From an uncultured Candidatus Saccharibacteria bacterium (GTDB lineage: Bacteria > Patescibacteriota > Doudnabacteria > UBA920), in NCBI GenBank assembly GCA_964512925.1, contig CAZEKH010000001.1:39445-103444 (forward strand): 64,000 nucleotides of DNA, given 5' to 3'. Shown here in pieces: positions 5,045 through 45,285 of the stretch (the stretch's first letter is position 1; every line of letters begins with the position of its first letter). Made by a program: the position numbers and the translations under genes. The notes beneath the pieces are model-generated. The model was given only the letters and a program-made list of their open reading frames with translations. It made no database searches and was not told where the DNA came from.

Positions 5045-5244
5045 TACTTTTATTTACAAATAGATTCCCGCTTTCGCGGGAATGACAGCAAGTAAATATA
5101 TTATAAACAAAAACCCGATGCTTGTCAGCTGTTTTTCAAAACAAAAATTTAAAAAGATTCCTGTCAACTATGACACAATTGTGTTACGTTTGACAGGAAG
5201 CTTTTTATAAAAAATTATTTAGTCTGCCACATTAAAAACAAAAG

Positions 5245-16146: not shown

Positions 16147-16240
16147 TCACTTTGGTATTATACCACTGACCGGCTATAAAATCTTCTCATGATATAACAA
16201 CAACCATTGCCTAAAAGATTTTAAACTATCTGCAATAAAC

Positions 16241-17755
16241 TTAGGCGCTATGCAACACCTCAATTTTTGCTCCTAAAGTTTTCAAACGACTAACAAGATC
16301 CTCATATCCGCGGTTAATAGAATACACATTACGAAGAACGGAAGTTCCTTTGGCTGCCAGCATACCAATCAAAATAATAGCAGCCGGCCGAAGGGCGGGC
16401 GGACAGATAACTTCAGCCCCTTTAAGCTCACTTACACCTTCTATTTGTACCCGATGAGCGTCCAGCAAAGTCAGATTGGCCCGCAATTTAGAAAGCTCTA
16501 GATAATAAATTGCGCGATTTTCATAAACCCAATCATGGATTAAGGTCCTGCCTTTTGCTAGAGCGGCAAGAGGCACAAAAAATGGCAAATTGTCTATATT
16601 TATCCCGGCATTTGAAGGCAGGGGATGAATTTTTTCTGTAAGAGCTGTTAAATTACCAGTCGCCATGGTTTTGATGTCACACAATTTCGTATAACCATTT
16701 TGGCTGAGATAGTTTTTAATTATTTTATACTTAAAACCCATTTTTTCCATCTTTAACAGCTCCATCCGTAAAAACTCTATGGGACACCTTTCAATTGTTA
16801 TGTTGGAGCTCGTTGCCGCCGCCAAGGACAAAAAAAGCATTGACTCAATAGGATCCTCGCTTACTGCAAATTCTATATTTCTATCTATCTCATCTACACC
16901 CTCAATCTCCAAAGTTGAAGAGCCAATACCGGAAATTTTTACTCCCAATTTTTGCAAAAAGAAGCAGACATCCTGCACCATATAATTAGCCGAGGCCAAG
17001 CGAACAGTGGTTTTTCCAGGACATAACGCAGCCGCCATCACAATATTTTCTGTTACCGTATCACCCATTTCATATAAAGTGATATCAGCGGCTTTCAGAT
17101 TTTTAGCAGATATTTCATAATGATCGTGAATGGTTTTTATTTTTATTCCCAATCTCTCTAAAGCAAACAAGTGCGGAGCAACTGTGCGCTGACCCAGTTT
17201 GCAGCCACCAGCAAATGGTAGAGAAAATTCGGGCAAAAAATGCGCCAAAGGACCCATAAGCATAATCACGGTGCGAGTTTTTATCGCTGCTTGAATATCC
17301 AACTGCTGAATGGCAAATATTTTCGGCGGCTTTATAAGCAAGTCATTATTTTGCCATTTAACGCTGACCCCAATACTGCTTAAAACCTCAATTATTCTAT
17401 ATACTTCTTCAATCTTCGGAACATTTTTTAAGGTTGTCGCTCCCTTGTTTAAAAGCGAAGCGCACATCAAACCCAAAGCGCAATTTTTAGAAGTATTGGT
17501 TCTGACAGCGCCGGAAAGTTCGCGCCCTCCCTCAATCTTAAAATTCAACTGTTCAGAGGCTAACGAAATTATCTTTCTGTTTAACACCCCGGAAATTTTT
17601 GAAAGCATTTCGGTAGAAAAATTCTGCAAACCTTTTTCCATACGCGCAACTGCTGACTGACTAGTTTTTAAACTTTTGGCAAAATCTGCCTGGCTTATAC
17701 CTTGTTTTTGCCTGAGCTTTTGAATAAACTTTCCGATAGTTTTGGCTTCAATCAT
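16241..17755 (-). CDS. murA: UDP-N-acetylglucosamine 1-carboxyvinyltransferase homolog with N-terminal HTH_XRE domain
   Basis: Residues ~1-65, IGKFIQKLRQKQGISQADFAKSLKTSQSAVARMEKG, form an XRE helix-turn-helix. The remainder is an EPT-fold MurA with AGGCKLGQRTVAPH (catalytic Cys loop) and MurA-like N-lobe. Confidence 0.8.
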   Translation of the reverse strand: MIEAKTIGKFIQKLRQKQGISQADFAKSLKTSQSAVARMEKGLQNFSTEMLSKISGVLNRKIISLASEQLNFKIEGGRELSGAVRTNTSKNCALGLMCASLLNKGATTLKNVPKIEEVYRIIEVLSSIGVSVKWQNNDLLIKPPKIFAIQQLDIQAAIKTRTVIMLMGPLAHFLPEFSLPFAGGCKLGQRTVAPHLFALERLGIKIKTIHDHYEISAKNLKAADITLYEMGDTVTENIVMAAALCPGKTTVRLASANYMVQDVCFFLQKLGVKISGIGSSTLEIEGVDEIDRNIEFAVSEDPIESMLFLSLAAATSSNITIERCPIEFLRMELLKMEKMGFKYKIIKNYLSQNGYTKLCDIKTMATGNLTALTEKIHPLPSNAGINIDNLPFFVPLAALAKGRTLIHDWVYENRAIYYLELSKLRANLTLLDAHRVQIEGVSELKGAEVICPPALRPAAIILIGMLAAKGTSVLRNVYSINRGYEDLVSRLKTLGAKIEVLHSA

Positions 17756-21275: not shown

Positions 21276-21350
21276 ACAAAATACTCGTCACAATACTGTA
21301 AAAGATTTTGGATCATATGCAATAGATGTAGAGTAAGATTTCTCATTTGC

Positions 21351-21507
21351 TGTCATCCCGGAATTTTTAAGGGCAGTTAAAAATATCCAGCCTGCCTGAA
21401 TGATTCAGTCAGGCGGGGATCCAGGGGTTAATCTTATATTCTATGTTTAAATATATAATCCTGGATCCCGGCTCTCTCCGCCTGCTGGCGGATCGGCCGG
21501 GATGACA
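21351..21507. repeat. Family-B composite palindromic element (MITE-like) with 11-bp terminal inverted repeats TGTCATCCCGG / CCGGGATGACA
   Basis: Nested inverted repeats: GGGGATCCAGGGG versus CCTGGATCCCGG, and GCCTGCCTGAATGATTCAGTCAGGCGG. Related copies at 31635-31712, 35257-35318, 44169-44198. Confidence 0.55.
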
Positions 21508-28687: not shown

Positions 28688-28713
28688 ATATAATGTTTAG
28701 GCAACAAGATTCC

Positions 28714-28743
28714 CTCCGCCTCCACCAGTTGGCGGATGGCGGA
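28714..28743. repeat. Family-C related palindrome CTCCGCCTCCACCAGTTGGCGGATGGCGGA
   Basis: Overlapping inverted repeats built on CCGCC...GGCGG. Confidence 0.35.
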
Positions 28744-28812
28744 TTAAATGTAATAAAAAATACTACAAATATTCACCCCTCCCCATTCGGCGAGCTCAGG
28801 GCAGGCTCTAAC

Positions 28813-28832
28813 CCTCCCCCTCAAGGGGAGGG
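28813..28832. repeat. Family-A palindrome CCCTCCCCCTCAAGGGGAGGG (near-identical to the copy at 7970)
   Basis: Perfect hairpin, not adjacent to a start codon. Confidence 0.45.
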
Positions 28833-28879
28833 AAAATATAAGGAATGACAGATAAAATTTTACAAATAACTCACCCCAT

Positions 28880-28903
28880 CCCTCTCTTTGAAAAAGAGAG
28901 GGG
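28880..28903 (+). promoter_or_regulatory. Family-A hairpin CCCTCTCTTTGAAAAAGAGAGGG in the leader of the RNHCP gene
   Basis: The 3' arm GAGAGGGGG ends 7 nt before the ATG at 28910. Confidence 0.5.
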
Positions 28904-31526: not shown

Positions 31527-31601
31527 GGCGCGATGGTGAAGCAGTAACACTGCGGTCTGCAAAACCGCCACGCGTGGGTGCAAATCCCACTCGCGCCTCC
31601 A
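31527..31601 (+). tRNA. tRNA-Cys (anticodon GCA)
   Basis: GGCGCGATGGTGAAGCAGTAACACTGCGGTCTGCAAAACCGCCACGCGTGGGTGCAAATCCCACTCGCGCCTCCA. Discriminator U73. Confidence 0.85.
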
Positions 31602-31628: not shown

Positions 31629-31732
31629 GGTCTGTCATCCCTTCGGGAGATCCCCCGTAAGGGGGACAAAACCGCCACGCGTGGGTGCCATCCCTCCGGG
31701 AGATGTAAACACAAATCCCACTCGCGCCTCCA
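31629..31732 (+). pseudogene. Partial tRNA-Cys 3' duplicate interrupted by two family-B-related hairpin insertions
   Basis: GGTCTG [TCATCCCTTCGGGAGATCCCCCGTAAGGGGGAC] AAAACCGCCACGCGTGGGTGC [CATCCCTCCGGGAGATGTAAACAC] AAATCCCACTCGCGCCTCCA. Outside the brackets it is identical to nt 33-75 of the intact tRNA-Cys. Confidence 0.55.
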
Positions 31733-35256: not shown

Positions 35257-35318
35257 TGTCATCCCGGCCTTGCTTGCCCGCCGTAGCCTTGGCGAAGGTG
35301 GAAGCCGGGATCCGGGGT
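35257..35318. repeat. Family-B element (TGTCATCCCGGCC ... GGAAGCCGGGATCCGGGG) in the rpsA 5' leader
   Basis: Shares the GTCATCCCGG / CCGGGATCC arms with 21351-21507. Confidence 0.5.
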
Positions 35319-35580
35319 AAATAAAAACAACGAATAATTTAATTATCGTTGAATGTTAGTTAAAATCTTTTGCATTGGGGTTAATGATTAAAAGCGCCTG
35401 TCTTTAGCTTATTTGTGGTTAATTGTTAAAAAGTTATTATCTCGGCGCTAGTTCAAATAAGCCTATATATTATACTTAATTTTTATAAAAATGCAAGCCC
35501 CAAAACCCCTTTCTTTTTTCCCTAAAAAGCCTTATAATTACTACAGAACTTTTATAAATTTAGCTACCGATAACTACTGA

Positions 35581-41375: not shown

Positions 41376-41648
41376 ATGGACGAAGAAGAACTAAAAATTT
41401 GGTACGAAGAAAAATATCATAAACTTTTAGGCATAACTTTTGAAGAATGGCTGGAATCCAGCCCTAAAAGTGAAGACCAGGCTTACGCGCGTATGGAAGA
41501 TATTGACCGCGAACTGAAGGCAACCGAGGACGAATATCACGACTCCACTGGCGATGAAAAATGGCAGTTGGAAGAGTATAGGGAAAAAATGCGCAACGAA
41601 TACCAGATGCTTGAAGAAATGTTCGGTCTTCAAAGTCATGATGAGTAA
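41376..41648 (+). CDS. Acidic hypothetical protein
   Basis: 90 aa, Glu/Asp-rich. Confidence 0.35.
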   Translation: MDEEELKIWYEEKYHKLLGITFEEWLESSPKSEDQAYARMEDIDRELKATEDEYHDSTGDEKWQLEEYREKMRNEYQMLEEMFGLQSHDE

Positions 41649-41756: not shown

Positions 41757-43901
41757 ATGTTTCAAATTGTTGTATTTTACATTATTTTTTCCTTGTTTGG
41801 ATTTTTAGGCCTGCCCCTGGTCAGAAGGGCGGGTCTTTCAGAAAAAGCACCTGTGCTTTGGGTGGCGGGAAAAATAGCCGGGCTTTTAACATTTGGTTAC
41901 TTAGTTTGGTTCTTAGCTTCCCTAAATCTTTTAGACTATCAAAACAAACTTGTAATCAGCCTAGGATTTTTGACTTTTGGCATCTACGGAATTTTTGATA
42001 CCTATAAACATTTAAGCGGTAAAACCAGACCTGAAAAAAAATCCTGGCTGCTGTCACTTGTAAAAACCGAGGCAATTTCTTCAGTGTTATTTTTAGCCTA
42101 TCTATACATCAGGTCATACCATCCGGATATCTATGACACTGAAAGATTTATGGATATGGCGTGGCTGACCTCTTCTGGGAAAACCAGCACATTCCCTTTT
42201 TTAGATCCCTGGTATCAGGGTAAAACCGTCAACTACTATTACTACGGCTCATATCTAATGAGCCTTATAGCCAACTTAGGACGGGTGCCATATGTTTACG
42301 CTTATACAGCGGCTTTGGGAGTTTTGTATTCCGGCGCCTGTATGCTGGCCGGAGTATTAACTTATGAGATCACCGCAAAAAAATCCTATGCCGCTTTATC
42401 AGCTTTTTTAGTCACCACGGCTGGCACGCTTTTTTACTCGGGTTGTGTTTTAAAAGGGTTTTTTCAAACCCCGGAAACGGTTTGTTCGTGGACGTCTTCA
42501 ACGCGCCTGTTTACTCCTTCATACATCATCAACGAAATTCCATCATATAGTTTTACAGTCGGGGATTTACACGCTCATTTTTTAGCCCTGCTCCCATTTT
42601 TGTTTAATTTGATCCTGGTCTATGGATTTGTTAAAACTGAAAAACCGAACAAATTATTAACTGTACTTTTATCTTTTGGTTTTGCAACTTCTTTCTTATC
42701 CAATTCCTGGGATGCCATAACTCTCAGTGTTTTATTGGCTTTGGCCGTGTTATATAAGTTTTACGAAACTCATGAACAACAAGGAAGACATTATATAGCT
42801 AGGATAAAAAGTATCAGTCCTTTTATTGTTTCCGCGGGGCTTGCGGGTTTGTTGTCTGGACTGATGATTCTTCCATACATCCTCAAATTCCATCTGCCGG
42901 TTTTGGGTTTCAAATTTGTGCCACAATATGTGTGGACCAACAAACTTATAAATTCCCAGTGGCCAACGCCTTTTTCCGCCTTTTTTGGAATGTGGGGTGT
43001 ATTTCTGATTGGAATTTTCTGGCCTTTATGGCATTTAAGAAAAAAACTTGTAGAACTAAAGTTTCCGCTGCTTTTAACCGCGACTTCGTTATTTTTTCTC
43101 GTTTTTGTAGAGTTATTTTTTGTGGCAGATATTTATTCAGTGGCCAATCCGCCCTATTTTAGAGCCAACACAGTGTTTAAGTTTGGCTATCATATTTGGA
43201 TTATGCTGTCTGTTGCGTTTAGCGTTATGCTTTGGGCGATTTTAAACCCCCAGAGCTTTTCTCTCAACTCTAAGAAAAAAGCAGTTTTTCAAAACAAATA
43301 TTCAGGTTGGATAAAATTTGGCGTATGCGTGTTTATATTTTTCAGCCTATACTACCCGTACCAGGCATTAAAGCAATATTACGGATTGTTTGGTGGCAGT
43401 TTCAAATCAGCGTTCGGTCGATCCTTAGACGGCTCGGAGTTTATGAAAAATACTGGCATTGGCGACTATGAAGCGGTTAAATTTATCAACCAACATATCC
43501 AAGGCAGGAAAGTCTTGATGGAAGCCGTGGGTGACAGCTATAAATACAACGGCAGGATTTCGGTTTTTACCGGAATGATCAACCCCATCAATTGGCTGTC
43601 TCACGAATGGACTTGGAGGCTGGATGCTGAAGCGGCAAAAAAAGCCAAGCCCGGAGAGCAGGTAGAGACCGGTTACGGCAAAGTTTCTGCCATTGGTCAG
43701 GATGTAAAAACAATTTACGAGACGCCGGATGTAAATATGGCCAAAAGCTTGCTTGGAAAATATCAGGTTAAATATGTTTATATCGGCTCTTTAGAGTGGA
43801 GCACATACCCGGCTTTGCAAGAAAATAAATTTGCATCTTTGGGAAAAATTATCTACGACGCAAACGGAGTTAAAATATACCAAGTAGTAGGTAGTAGATA
43901 G
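41757..43901 (+). CDS. YYY-motif (DUF2298 / chlor_Arch_YYY) large polytopic membrane protein, putative glycosyltransferase
   Basis: 714 aa, more than 12 TM segments, conserved TVNYYYYGSY motif. Confidence 0.7.
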   Translation: MFQIVVFYIIFSLFGFLGLPLVRRAGLSEKAPVLWVAGKIAGLLTFGYLVWFLASLNLLDYQNKLVISLGFLTFGIYGIFDTYKHLSGKTRPEKKSWLLSLVKTEAISSVLFLAYLYIRSYHPDIYDTERFMDMAWLTSSGKTSTFPFLDPWYQGKTVNYYYYGSYLMSLIANLGRVPYVYAYTAALGVLYSGACMLAGVLTYEITAKKSYAALSAFLVTTAGTLFYSGCVLKGFFQTPETVCSWTSSTRLFTPSYIINEIPSYSFTVGDLHAHFLALLPFLFNLILVYGFVKTEKPNKLLTVLLSFGFATSFLSNSWDAITLSVLLALAVLYKFYETHEQQGRHYIARIKSISPFIVSAGLAGLLSGLMILPYILKFHLPVLGFKFVPQYVWTNKLINSQWPTPFSAFFGMWGVFLIGIFWPLWHLRKKLVELKFPLLLTATSLFFLVFVELFFVADIYSVANPPYFRANTVFKFGYHIWIMLSVAFSVMLWAILNPQSFSLNSKKKAVFQNKYSGWIKFGVCVFIFFSLYYPYQALKQYYGLFGGSFKSAFGRSLDGSEFMKNTGIGDYEAVKFINQHIQGRKVLMEAVGDSYKYNGRISVFTGMINPINWLSHEWTWRLDAEAAKKAKPGEQVETGYGKVSAIGQDVKTIYETPDVNMAKSLLGKYQVKYVYIGSLEWSTYPALQENKFASLGKIIYDANGVKIYQVVGSR

Positions 43902-43982: not shown

Positions 43983-44735
43983 ATGCTTTACGTTGTTGCA
44001 ACACCAATTGGAAATTTGGGGGATATAACCCTCCGCGCAATCGAGGTTTTAAAGTCTTGCGATTTTGTGATTGCGGAAAACCCAGGGTACTCACGGAGGC
44101 TTTTAGAATATATAGATGGGTTACCATTAAATTCCAATATTATAAAAACGCTGACTGAGGATATTTACCCTGGATCCCGGATCGAGTCCGGGATGACAGC
44201 TAAAATTAGCCGCAAAGAAGTTTGTCAATTTGCGGAACATAACGAACAACAGGTAGTCAAAGAACTTTCCAGAAGGCTGATAAAAGAAACCGCCTGCCTT
44301 ATAACTGACGCCGGGACTCCGGGCGTTTCTGACCCAGGCTTTAGGCTGGTAAGAGAGTGCGTTGCGCAAGGTGTTGAAGTATTACCTATCCCAGGAGCCA
44401 ATGCCGCCGTTGCCGCGCTTTCTGCAAGTGGACTTCCAACTGACAAATTTATGTTTTTAGGTTTCCTTCAAAAAACAGCGGCTAAAACCGTGTCCGCCCT
44501 ACAGTCTGCAGAAAGCGCGGAAGCCACGGCGATTTTCTATGAATCCCCGGAAAGAATTATAAAAACCCTAAGCTACATCTCCAACGCTTTTCCAAACAGC
44601 CGGGTGGTTGTGGCCAGGGAACTTACCAAGCTCCACGAAGAATTTTTACGCGGAAACCCGGACGAGGTCATCCAGATGCTTAAAGAAAAGCCTTCAATAA
44701 AAGGCGAGCTGACCGTATTAATTTCATTTAAATAA
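43983..44735 (+). CDS. rsmI: 16S rRNA (cytidine1402-2'-O)-methyltransferase RsmI with an internal approximately 30-aa insertion
   Basis: MLYVVATPIGNLGDITLRAIEVL and ITDAGTPGVSDPG match RsmI. The insertion spans the family-B palindrome at 44169-44198. Confidence 0.85.
   Translation: MLYVVATPIGNLGDITLRAIEVLKSCDFVIAENPGYSRRLLEYIDGLPLNSNIIKTLTEDIYPGSRIESGMTAKISRKEVCQFAEHNEQQVVKELSRRLIKETACLITDAGTPGVSDPGFRLVRECVAQGVEVLPIPGANAAVAALSASGLPTDKFMFLGFLQKTAAKTVSALQSAESAEATAIFYESPERIIKTLSYISNAFPNSRVVVARELTKLHEEFLRGNPDEVIQMLKEKPSIKGELTVLISFK
44169..44198. repeat. Family-B palindrome CCTGGATCCCGGATCGAGTCCGGGATGACA inside the rsmI coding sequence, in frame
   Basis: Encodes PGSRIESGMT. Arms are identical to the terminal repeats of the 21351-21507 element. 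Confidence 0.55.
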
Positions 44736-44778
44736 AATTGTTTGACAACAGTATTACAGATGTAATACAATTATAAAT

Positions 44779-45009
44779 ATGAGAACAATACTTAACCTTT
44801 CAATCCCCCCCCAAACTGCCACAGTAATAAAAAAGCGCGCTAAAATGCGTGGCTTTACTAGCACAAGCAGCTACATCCGCTTTCTTATTGATTCAGATAA
44901 TGACAACTTAATAACAGAAAAACAACTTTTACAAATAGCAAAAAAAGCTGACGCTGACTACAACACCGGAAAGTTGATTAAAGCTAAATCACTAACGGAG
45001 TTGCTATAG
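44779..45009 (+). CDS. Putative antitoxin (RelB/ParD-like small protein)
   Basis: 76 aa ORF directly upstream (3-nt gap) of a RelE/ParE toxin. Confidence 0.45.
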   Translation: MRTILNLSIPPQTATVIKKRAKMRGFTSTSSYIRFLIDSDNDNLITEKQLLQIAKKADADYNTGKLIKAKSLTELL

Positions 45010-45012
45010 CAT

Positions 45013-45285
45013 ATGGTAGTAACCGACATATTTTATGGCCAGGATTTTGTAAAGCAATTTAAAAAACTGCCGAAAGAAATTCAGGTTTTTTCGATATCCA
45101 AAGAAAAATTATTTAAAGAAAACCCCCTACACCCCTCACTAAGGCTACACGGTTTGAAAGGAAAACTGGATGGCCTTTTTTCTATTTCAATAAACTTAAG
45201 CTATAGAATCATTTTTAAAAGAAAAGAGAATGGAAATATTATTTTTATCTCTATAGGCAAACATAATATATATAAAAATCTATGA
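45013..45285 (+). CDS. RelE/ParE-family type II toxin (YafQ-like mRNA interferase)
   Basis: LHPSLRLHGLKGKLDGLFSISINLSYRIIFKRKENGNIIFISIGKH is the canonical RelE/ParE C-terminal motif. Confidence 0.75.
   Translation: MVVTDIFYGQDFVKQFKKLPKEIQVFSISKEKLFKENPLHPSLRLHGLKGKLDGLFSISINLSYRIIFKRKENGNIIFISIGKHNIYKNL

Follow-up and report, generated by a model that had tools for sequence, protein, structure and literature searches.

One of the questions raised by the rsmI gene of an uncultured bacterium of the Doudnabacteria lineage is how some thirty residues came to be added to a conserved rRNA methyltransferase, and what the palindrome in the DNA that encodes them has to do with it. The gene lies at 43983-44735 on the plus strand of a 64,000-nucleotide stretch of DNA (contig CAZEKH010000001.1 of assembly GCA_964512925.1; hereafter the window) and encodes a 250-residue 16S rRNA C1402 2'-O-methyltransferase, recognised from its open reading frame (ORF) translation and from Pfam, NCBIfam and Protein Data Bank (PDB) matches. 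A first-pass annotation of the window had proposed that a palindromic element inserted in frame into this gene and was tolerated as a surface loop. The analysis described below argues, with a probability of roughly four in five, that the approximately 29 extra residues are the remains of repetitive extragenic palindromic (REP) DNA inserted in frame into the loop between helix α2 and strand β3 of the RsmI N-terminal domain.

The rsmI product and its relatives

The window protein is an RsmI by its equivalog score and by sharing the fold of solved RsmI structures. Its translation, which includes AENPGYSRRLLEYIDGLPLNSNIIKTLTEDIYPGSRIESGMTAKISRKEVCQFAEHNEQQ, matches Pfam PF00590 at E = 1e-27, scores 214.5 bits against the NCBIfam equivalog TIGR00096 (cut-off 167.9), and is matched by E. 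coli RsmI (PDB 5HW4) at E = 2e-41. When an AlphaFold2 model of the protein was submitted to Foldseek, the best matches were 3KWP, 9PZG and 5HW4, with template modelling (TM) scores of about 0.6-0.7. Of the 275 positions of the TIGR00096 profile the match covers 1-220, and the protein stops 3 residues past the aligned 5HW4 core; it consists of the N-terminal domain and core only, and lacks the C-terminal domain of E. coli RsmI, as do the insert-less alleles discussed below. Indeed, all Doudnabacteria-type RsmI homologs are without this C-terminal domain, though a 2026 cryo-electron microscopy study found it essential for 30S binding in E. coli (PMC13037946).

The extra residues become apparent in two comparisons. 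The alignment with 5HW4 falls into two stretches, between which residues 45-82 of the window protein (38 residues) face chain residues 47-54 (8 residues), an excess of about 30. Measured against close relatives that lack the insert, whose RsmI is 221-222 residues long, the variable segment DGLPLNSNIIKTLTEDIYPGSRIESGMTAKISR (residues 45-77; 44115-44213, plus strand; placed from the alignments and the AlphaFold2 model) puts 33 residues in place of 4, a net gain of 29 amino acids or 87 nt. The distance from AExxxxx to F.EHNE tells the same story, being 45 residues in the window but 15-16 in 27 of the 31 RsmI genes, drawn from many phyla, that were parsed. The earlier estimate of an approximately 30-residue segment missing from canonical RsmI was thus accurate.

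How widely the site is occupied was judged from the 120 best homologs, which are all about 65-77% identical and several of which carry the source name Candidatus Doudnabacteria. Forty-eight of them are empty, with GAWP, DVRD or DIRG at the site, and 72 are filled with 9-101 residues. In all of eight Doudnabacteria-type genes from further away (39-53% identity) the site is empty and the product has 220-226 residues; given these and the canonical spacing in 27 of 31 genes, the filled state is the derived one. Reading frame and invariant motifs are intact in every one of the 72 filled alleles, and there is no conserved residue within their inserts or at the junctions. The rsmI insert site is old, hypervariable and polymorphic, it is common to a Doudnabacteria subclade, and its alleles are mosaic.

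An assembly artefact does not explain the insert itself, as the 72 filled homologs come from many independent samples. An intein or self-splicing intron was likewise considered and rejected: the insert measures 33 residues (99 nt), those of relatives measure 9-101 residues, and the junctions hold no conserved residue, though no dedicated profile search was made. A 33-residue insert is too small next to minimal intein and intron sizes.

A second peculiarity of the protein has nothing to do with the insertion. At 44071-44091 the gene encodes AENPGYS, where canonical RsmI has the rRNA-contacting AEDTR(H), and the first-pass annotation had asked whether this replacement is specific to the lineage. 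It is a Doudnabacteria-type trait: AENP(G/x)YS is invariant in 101 of 101 aligned sequences, AENPxYS or AENPxxT occurs in every Doudnabacteria-type RsmI examined, and AENP was found at 14 of 14 Doudnabacteria-type genome loci, as against AEDT in 17 parsed genes of other phyla. Filled and empty alleles alike have the motif without variation, so it is independent of the insert. The double substitution T46A/R47A in E. coli RsmI lowers activity by only about 35% (PMC13037946).

A REP unit within the coding sequence

The peptide DGLPLNSNIIKTLTEDIYPGSRIESGMTAKIS and the DNA CCTGGATCCCGGATCGAGTCCGGGATGACA (44169-44198), to which the first-pass annotation had drawn attention, are both exact in the sequence. 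Within this DNA, 44174-44194 forms a perfect 8-bp inverted repeat, ATCCCGGA/TCCGGGAT, with a 5-nt loop. The minus-strand sequence of the element is C-TGTC-ATCCCGGA-CTCGA-TCCGGGAT-CCA-GG, that is, a TGTC tag (44198-44195), a first stem arm ATCCCGGA (44194-44187), a CTCGA loop (44186-44182), a second arm TCCGGGAT (44181-44174) and a CCA tail (44173-44171).

This is the anatomy of the CGTC-tagged REP superfamily, defined by Di Nocera, De Gregorio and Rocco (2013, BMC Genomics 14:522; PMC3733652, cited here and below for the parts consulted). Such elements have an unpaired tetranucleotide tag, CGTC, often TGTC and also CCTC; a stem of 8-9 bp that nearly always opens A-T, T-A; a loop of 4-5 nt; and a 3-nt unpaired tail, mostly CCA. 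They occur mainly as head-to-head dimers with the tags outward, intragenic in-frame copies encoding 20-30 amino acids are documented, among them RPE-4 and RPE-6 of Rickettsia, and no transposase has been found in association with them (PMC3733652). Judged by sequence, the rsmI palindrome agrees with the published family in tag, stem, loop and tail, and 44171-44198 (minus strand) can be taken as an intact TGTC-tagged REP unit of the CGTC/TGTC superfamily.

The hairpin pattern, with up to 2 mismatches allowed, occurs once in the window and in none of 100 shuffles. Folding energies of the hairpin are -16.7 kcal/mol (z = -2.9) for the plus strand and -17.1 kcal/mol (z = -3.2) for the minus strand. 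In the frame of the gene the unit encodes PGSRIESGMT. Five of its six frames are open, the sole stopped frame meeting a TGA in the tag, which is why such an element can be read through.

The unit also has kin nearby. The family pattern GGATCCSS...SSGGGATGAC is found 4 times in the 64-kb window against 0 expected, and the earlier observation that its arms recur in other elements of the window was confirmed by blastn-short: 18 of the 19 positions of TATTTACCCTGGATCCCGG (44162-44180) recur at 35305-35323, and all 14 of TCCGGGATGACAGC (44187-44200) at 21349-21362. The likeness runs beyond the core, with GGGTAAATA past the tail shared with the copy at 35257 and GC ahead of the tag shared with the copy at 21351. 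Counting these shared bases, the REP-derived stretch extends over 44162-44200 (minus strand), or about 39 of the 99 nt of the insert.

The copy at 21351-21507, recognised by pattern and folding, is an intergenic head-to-head dimer with tag, stem and tail of the rsmI type, whose left unit (21351-21423, plus strand) and right unit (21462-21507, minus strand) each enclose a long structured loop. The other is a single intergenic unit, TGTC-ATCCCGGC-(35-nt structured loop)-GCCGGGAT-CCG, at 35257-35314 on the plus strand (to 35323 with the subsequent GGGTAAATA), between divergent S1-domain and Lactamase_B_3-like genes. All three intergenic units share the tag and tail of the rsmI REP and have a stem of 7-8 bp. 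A second REP type, with CGTC-1 geometry and the sequence TGTC-ATTCCCGC-GAAA-GCGGGAAT-CTA, adjoins tRNA-Ser at 5061-5087 (minus strand).

The family reaches well past this genome. A scan of metagenome contigs with the pattern TGTCATCCCGG-N(5-35)-CCGGGATCC returned at least 120 loci with at least 135 units. Among the matches listed, contig G+C content spans 32-72%, stem and loop geometry is canonical in 88 of 135 units and the tail is CCA in 127; dimers are head-to-head at 10 loci and tail-to-tail at 1, and the exact 28-mer of the window recurs in two unrelated high-GC contigs (L153 and L192). Since units are repeated both within the window and across metagenomes, the rsmI palindrome belongs to a widespread and very conserved repeat family and is no chance palindrome.

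REP dimers and decayed copies in related rsmI genes

What entered the site can be read from the DNA of filled relatives. In four of them (L003, L081, L085 and L209) the same codon position is occupied, in the same frame, by a head-to-head REP dimer of the form TGTCAT...ATGACA, and a fifth (L011) has an apparent head-to-head dimer whose left unit is partly degraded; these five inserts fold at -29 to -48 kcal/mol. Stem families vary from one filled allele to another and include ATTGCGAG and ATCCCGG/ATTCCGG. The tags of the L210 insert have decayed, with one unit retaining the stem ATTCCCGC and a GAAA loop and the other the stem ATCCCCGA, while the insert of L208 spans 315 nt with multiple tags and units (-118 kcal/mol). 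The inserts of L207 and L001 are decayed, their palindromes lost. Outside rsmI, at 17148-17211, L210 also has a head-to-head heterodimer of the closely related ATCCCGGA and ATTCCCGC REP types; it falls within the 3' end of a called Wzy_C-family gene (16186-17328) and is possibly a second intragenic REP insertion.

Intact copies all share one frame, in which the left end reads GTC-AT. (V-I) and the right end ATG-ACA (M-T), and by a crude protein-level count these signatures are present in 47 of the 72 filled alleles at each end. In P0017, P0027 and P0054 two or three right-hand ends stand in tandem, which argues for successive additions.

Retained tags of this kind could mean that the hairpin is kept for a role as nucleic acid, for instance in mRNA stability or as an RNase site, in translational pausing, or in binding gyrase or another protein, with the peptide a by-product. 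Proposals that REPs work at the RNA or DNA level are widespread (PMC3733652, in the parts consulted), the rsmI hairpin is stable, and the tag signatures persist although the peptide between them is not conserved. Many alleles, however, have lost their palindromic structure altogether and 48 are empty; neither a terminator-like nor a promoter-like site was found at the rsmI REP; and continuing renewal of the units explains the retained tags equally well. We regard such a role as very improbable.

The window insert is best read as one intact REP unit together with a decayed head-to-head partner and spacer. The AT-rich left part, DGLPLNSNIIKTLTE (44115-44161, 47 nt, plus strand), would be the putative partner and spacer; no hairpin is left in it, but L003, L081, L085 and L209 have a tagged left unit at this place, and at the protein level it resembles the presumably decayed left units of P0022 (NVIKIFTTSDEESL) and P0002 (NSKTIQSDSEESL). 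Relatives with a segment of like length and no palindrome, which the first-pass annotation had named as a sign against insertion, do exist to some extent: L001/P0036 is filled and about 20 residues longer than the empty alleles, with DNA free of any palindrome, and P0002 is as long as the window protein. Because empty alleles and intact dimers both exist, these are more readily taken as decayed copies within a continuum, and they leave the idea of an insertion standing.

History of the insertion site

In a neighbour-joining tree built with the insert masked, filled and empty alleles are interspersed, and some proteins that are 93-94% identical nevertheless differ by the insert. The closest pairs are mosaic. 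The proteins of P0003 (filled) and P0056 (empty) are 93.7% identical; their DNA is 98.3% identical over nt 1-116, drops to 46% in the 28 nt ahead of the insert, and returns to about 91% past it. P0055 (filled) and P0106 (empty) are 69% identical in their first 100 nt and wholly identical (100%) in their last 345 nt. All filled alleles have derived flanks, with Y-I-D-x-L upstream and often A-K-L-x-N-K-E downstream, whereas the empty alleles retain the ancestral H-(I/F)-G (compare HFGI in E. coli). Independent insertions into empty alleles were rejected as the sole cause of the interspersed tree, given the derived flanks common to filled alleles and the mosaic make-up of the two closest filled/empty pairs.

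A simpler history would have a single REP unit transpose recently into an empty rsmI allele of this very genome, the rest of the extra segment being unrelated. The condition of the unit invites the thought, for all 8 of its 8 stem pairs are perfect, it is identical to copies elsewhere, and it has flanking bases in common with intergenic copies of the same genome; the perfect stem and shared flanks suggest that the unit is young or recently converted. It is the whole of the insert that this account fails to cover. The nearest relatives, P0002 and P0006 together with about 70 others, are filled at the same codon between flanks YID(G/S)L and K(L/I)xxKE, the REP accounts for merely the 39 nt or so noted above, and the comparison revealed neither a target duplication nor an empty allele with window-like flanks. 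A recent and simple transposition is accordingly unlikely.

A transposable element of the miniature inverted-repeat type (MITE) with target duplication was also rejected, since the junctions examined are without a direct repeat: ...TTACC|TGTCAT...ATGACA|AATATA in L081, ...TTGCC|...|AGAAAA in L003, and ...GGGATGACA|GCTAAA on the right side of the window insert.

Position of the insert in the fold

The AlphaFold2 model of the window protein reproduces the RsmI fold (mean predicted local distance difference test score, pLDDT, 75.6) and places the insert between a helix at residues 34-46 (α2) and a strand at 79-82 (β3), in a loop of low confidence. The pLDDT drops below 50 at residues 60-71, and the sole predicted helix is a weak one at 51-61, so that the extra 29 or so residues are probably disordered.

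Structural work on E. coli RsmI suggests why such a peptide might be harmless. The dimer interface is made up of α4-α6 and β5-β8 (PMC5053481), and the rRNA contacts of the N-terminal domain are D45, T46 and R47 at the start of α2 and H68 past β3 (PMC13037946). All of these contacts belong to the beta-to-alpha ends of the sheet, and the topology of the α/β fold would put the α2-β3 loop on the opposite edge. With the loop predicted to be opposite the AE(D/N)xx end of α2 and outside the dimer interface, the enzyme may well be undisturbed by the extra peptide. The gene had been called essential in the first-pass annotation, a description that does not hold in E. coli, where rsmI can be deleted and a ΔrsmI strain has been constructed and used (PMC13037946).

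It is conceivable that the loop was instead expanded under selection, for example as a ribosome or partner contact specific to the candidate phyla radiation (CPR), the palindrome being incidental or exapted as raw material. The insert is, after all, kept in frame in 72 of 120 homologs, the model has a weak helix within it, and a protein without the domain for 30S binding could have use for a compensating element. A selected contact would hardly be expected, however, to vary from 9 to 101 residues with no conserved residue inside, to be present in one and absent from the other of two proteins 93-94% identical, or to have so low a pLDDT, and the deeper relatives, which also lack the C-terminal domain, are all empty. 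A functional expansion is for these reasons scarcely credible as the origin of the insert.

Origin of the extra residues

The idea that palindromic DNA entered rsmI in frame and was tolerated in a loop is supported by the canonical TGTC REP, by close relatives with an empty site, by REP dimers at the same codon in other relatives, and by the position in the fold. It needs amendment in two respects, in that the palindrome makes up only about 39 of the 99 nt and the insert does not stem from a simple recent event in this genome.

Several points weigh against this account. The left 47 nt of the insert have no recognisable REP, and their reading as the remnant of a dimer is drawn from the relatives. 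The short 5-nt loop copy is single in the 64-kb window, the three copies with the same stem having loops of 23-57 nt. There is no clean before-and-after pair, because the derived flanks of filled alleles are missing from the empty ones, and no target-site duplication is visible at the rsmI inserts. The mosaic pairs come from short metagenome contigs, which might be chimeric assemblies, and the structural model is of moderate quality only.

The following course of events would account for the observations. The filled state would have originated within a Doudnabacteria subclade, as suggested by the empty sites of all more distant relatives, after which the site would have served as an almost neutral landing pad. 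There REP units, mostly head-to-head dimers, would decay, accumulate or give way to other stem families, and homologous recombination would shuffle filled and empty alleles between lineages. The most economical reading appears to combine a filled class of alleles that arose once or very few times with recombination and REP turnover. In the window genome the right unit would have remained intact, related to the intergenic copies of the same genome, while the left unit decayed. The order of these events, the mobility of the element and the continued activity of RsmI are inferred only. Renewal of units in situ fits both the occurrence of different stem families between the same flanks and the likeness of the window unit to its own intergenic copies, without being proved by them.

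A bolder version of this history, which we put forward tentatively and think somewhat doubtful, is that the α2-β3 loop is a recurrent and possibly sequence-directed landing pad, at which REP dimers of different families would repeatedly integrate or convert in keeping with the repertoire of each genome, between flanks that remain homologous. In the 15-20 kb flanks of the relatives' own rsmI genes there are almost no extra copies of their insert family, except in L210 and L004, a span too short to test the matching of family to genome. If the loop were such a landing pad, CGTC-type REPs would be actively mobile in CPR genomes, and pairs of filled and empty alleles could help to work out how they are mobilised.

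Other features of the window

Between rsmI and yebC lies a two-gene module (44742-45285) composed of a 76-residue ORF with no Pfam match (44779-45009) and a 90-residue HigB/YafQ/RelE-like toxin (45013-45285; PF05015, E = 2e-6); ahead of the two, at 44742-44771, is a strong promoter-like site, TTGACA-18-TACAAT. In the relatives L081, L083 and L210, yebC follows about 25-40 nt after rsmI, and the module looks like a lineage-specific toxin-antitoxin insertion. Directly upstream of rsmI is a gene for a 714-residue DUF2298 membrane protein (41757-43901). The corresponding position in L081, L083, L209 and L210 is taken by an ORF of 92-93 residues, whose likely counterpart in the window is at 41376-41648; the region being otherwise syntenic, the DUF2298 gene has the look of an insertion specific to the lineage. 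In two relatives rsmI adjoins a gene for a 23S rRNA intervening-sequence protein (bAvd-like, PF05635), which lies upstream in L208 (2596-2964) and downstream in the P0002 contig.

Two further places in the window have hairpins. After the tRNA-Cys gene (31527-31601) come first a TGTC-tagged hairpin (from 31633) and next a recopied version of the last 42 nt of the tRNA (31667-31732), this second copy being broken in the T-arm by an insert of about 24 nt that contains a hairpin, CATCCCTCCGGGAGATGTAAACAC; the duplicate could be of the att-site kind or else a tRNA fragment disrupted by a REP. At 28700-28900 there is an intergenic cluster of several G+C-rich hairpins, such as ACCCTCCCCCTCAAGGGGAGGG, one of them preceded by a TGTCATTCC tag at 28850 (minus strand), and these may represent other small repeat families.

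Significance

The rsmI locus extends the translation of selfish palindromic DNA in housekeeping genes to the candidate phyla radiation, whose small genomes are usually deemed streamlined; a limited literature search turned up no specific report of palindromic repeats or MITEs in Patescibacteria. Across dozens of lineages a single loop of one rRNA methyltransferase takes up 9-101 residues of REP DNA, which marks the α2-β3 loop of RsmI as a natural permissive site and shows that length heterogeneity among CPR orthologs can stem from REP insertions. The translations of these units (PGSRI.SGMT, VIARSASDEAI, VIPSASEESL and IPAKAGIQ) are recognisable and can be masked in annotation and alignment, and the polymorphic site offers material for studying the spread of CGTC-type REPs.

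Comparison with known systems

GTAG-tagged REP doublets are reportedly mobilised by REP-associated tyrosine transposases (RAYTs), a finding credited to Bertels and Rainey in 2011 and to Nunvar et al. in 2010. In these REPINs (REP doublets forming hairpins), too, two inverted REPs and a short spacer make a long hairpin that replicates as a unit, and singlets are often the remnants of doublets. The rsmI element is not of the GTAG/RAYT kind, its tag being TGTC. Nor did a RAYT gene come to light, although no search was aimed at one and the profile scans covered seven ORFs of the window.

MITEs are defined by terminal inverted repeats of a parent insertion sequence (IS) and by target-site duplications, and those of Coxiella burnetii are said to be an example in bacteria. 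Like the rsmI inserts, bacterial MITEs are small, non-autonomous palindromic repeats that land in genes and alter proteins (reviewed in PMC10969869). The rsmI inserts differ from them in having no flanking duplication and no known parent IS, and with target duplication absent the rsmI element is no strict MITE.

The closest match is the CGTC REP superfamily itself, which has the same tag, stem, loop and tail, forms head-to-head dimers and includes intragenic in-frame copies (PMC3733652, parts consulted). Head-to-head dimers occur at 21351-21507 of the window and in the rsmI genes of L003, L081, L085 and L209, whereas the rsmI copy of the window is a singleton. As published, CGTC REPs were spread over 5 phyla, mainly Alphaproteobacteria, at a time when Patescibacteria/CPR genomes were unavailable; the structured loops of 23-57 nt in the intergenic copies of the window exceed the published range of 4-5 nt, and rsmI is not among the intragenic targets named in the consulted parts of that paper.

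The Rickettsia palindromic elements (RPEs) described by Ogata et al. (2000, 2002) are likewise palindromic repeats that are translated in frame and tolerated within conserved genes, and RPE-4 and RPE-6 are REPs of the CGTC-4 and CGTC-1 types, respectively (PMC3733652, parts consulted). A feature of RPEs, an in-frame palindromic repeat in a conserved gene that is absent from orthologs, is found in rsmI as well, as a functional analogy only. RPEs have been proposed to lie on protein surfaces, and an RNA-modifying enzyme is among their targets in the form of tRNA pseudouridine synthase B (same source). Their host is an obligate intracellular alphaproteobacterium, and RPE-1 is longer (100-150 bp) and unrelated in sequence to the rsmI REP; nor do the consulted parts of PMC3733652 describe a Rickettsia counterpart to a hypervariable site where several stem families occupy one codon.

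The rsmI case reveals no new kind of system. As far as the consulted sources describe them, the Rickettsia palindromic elements and the intragenic REPs of Di Nocera et al. are instances of one phenomenon with it, and in-frame palindromes within genes were already known from Rickettsia and other bacteria. What is new is the host phylum (within the limited literature search), the target gene, and the turnover of several REP families in one loop across a clade.

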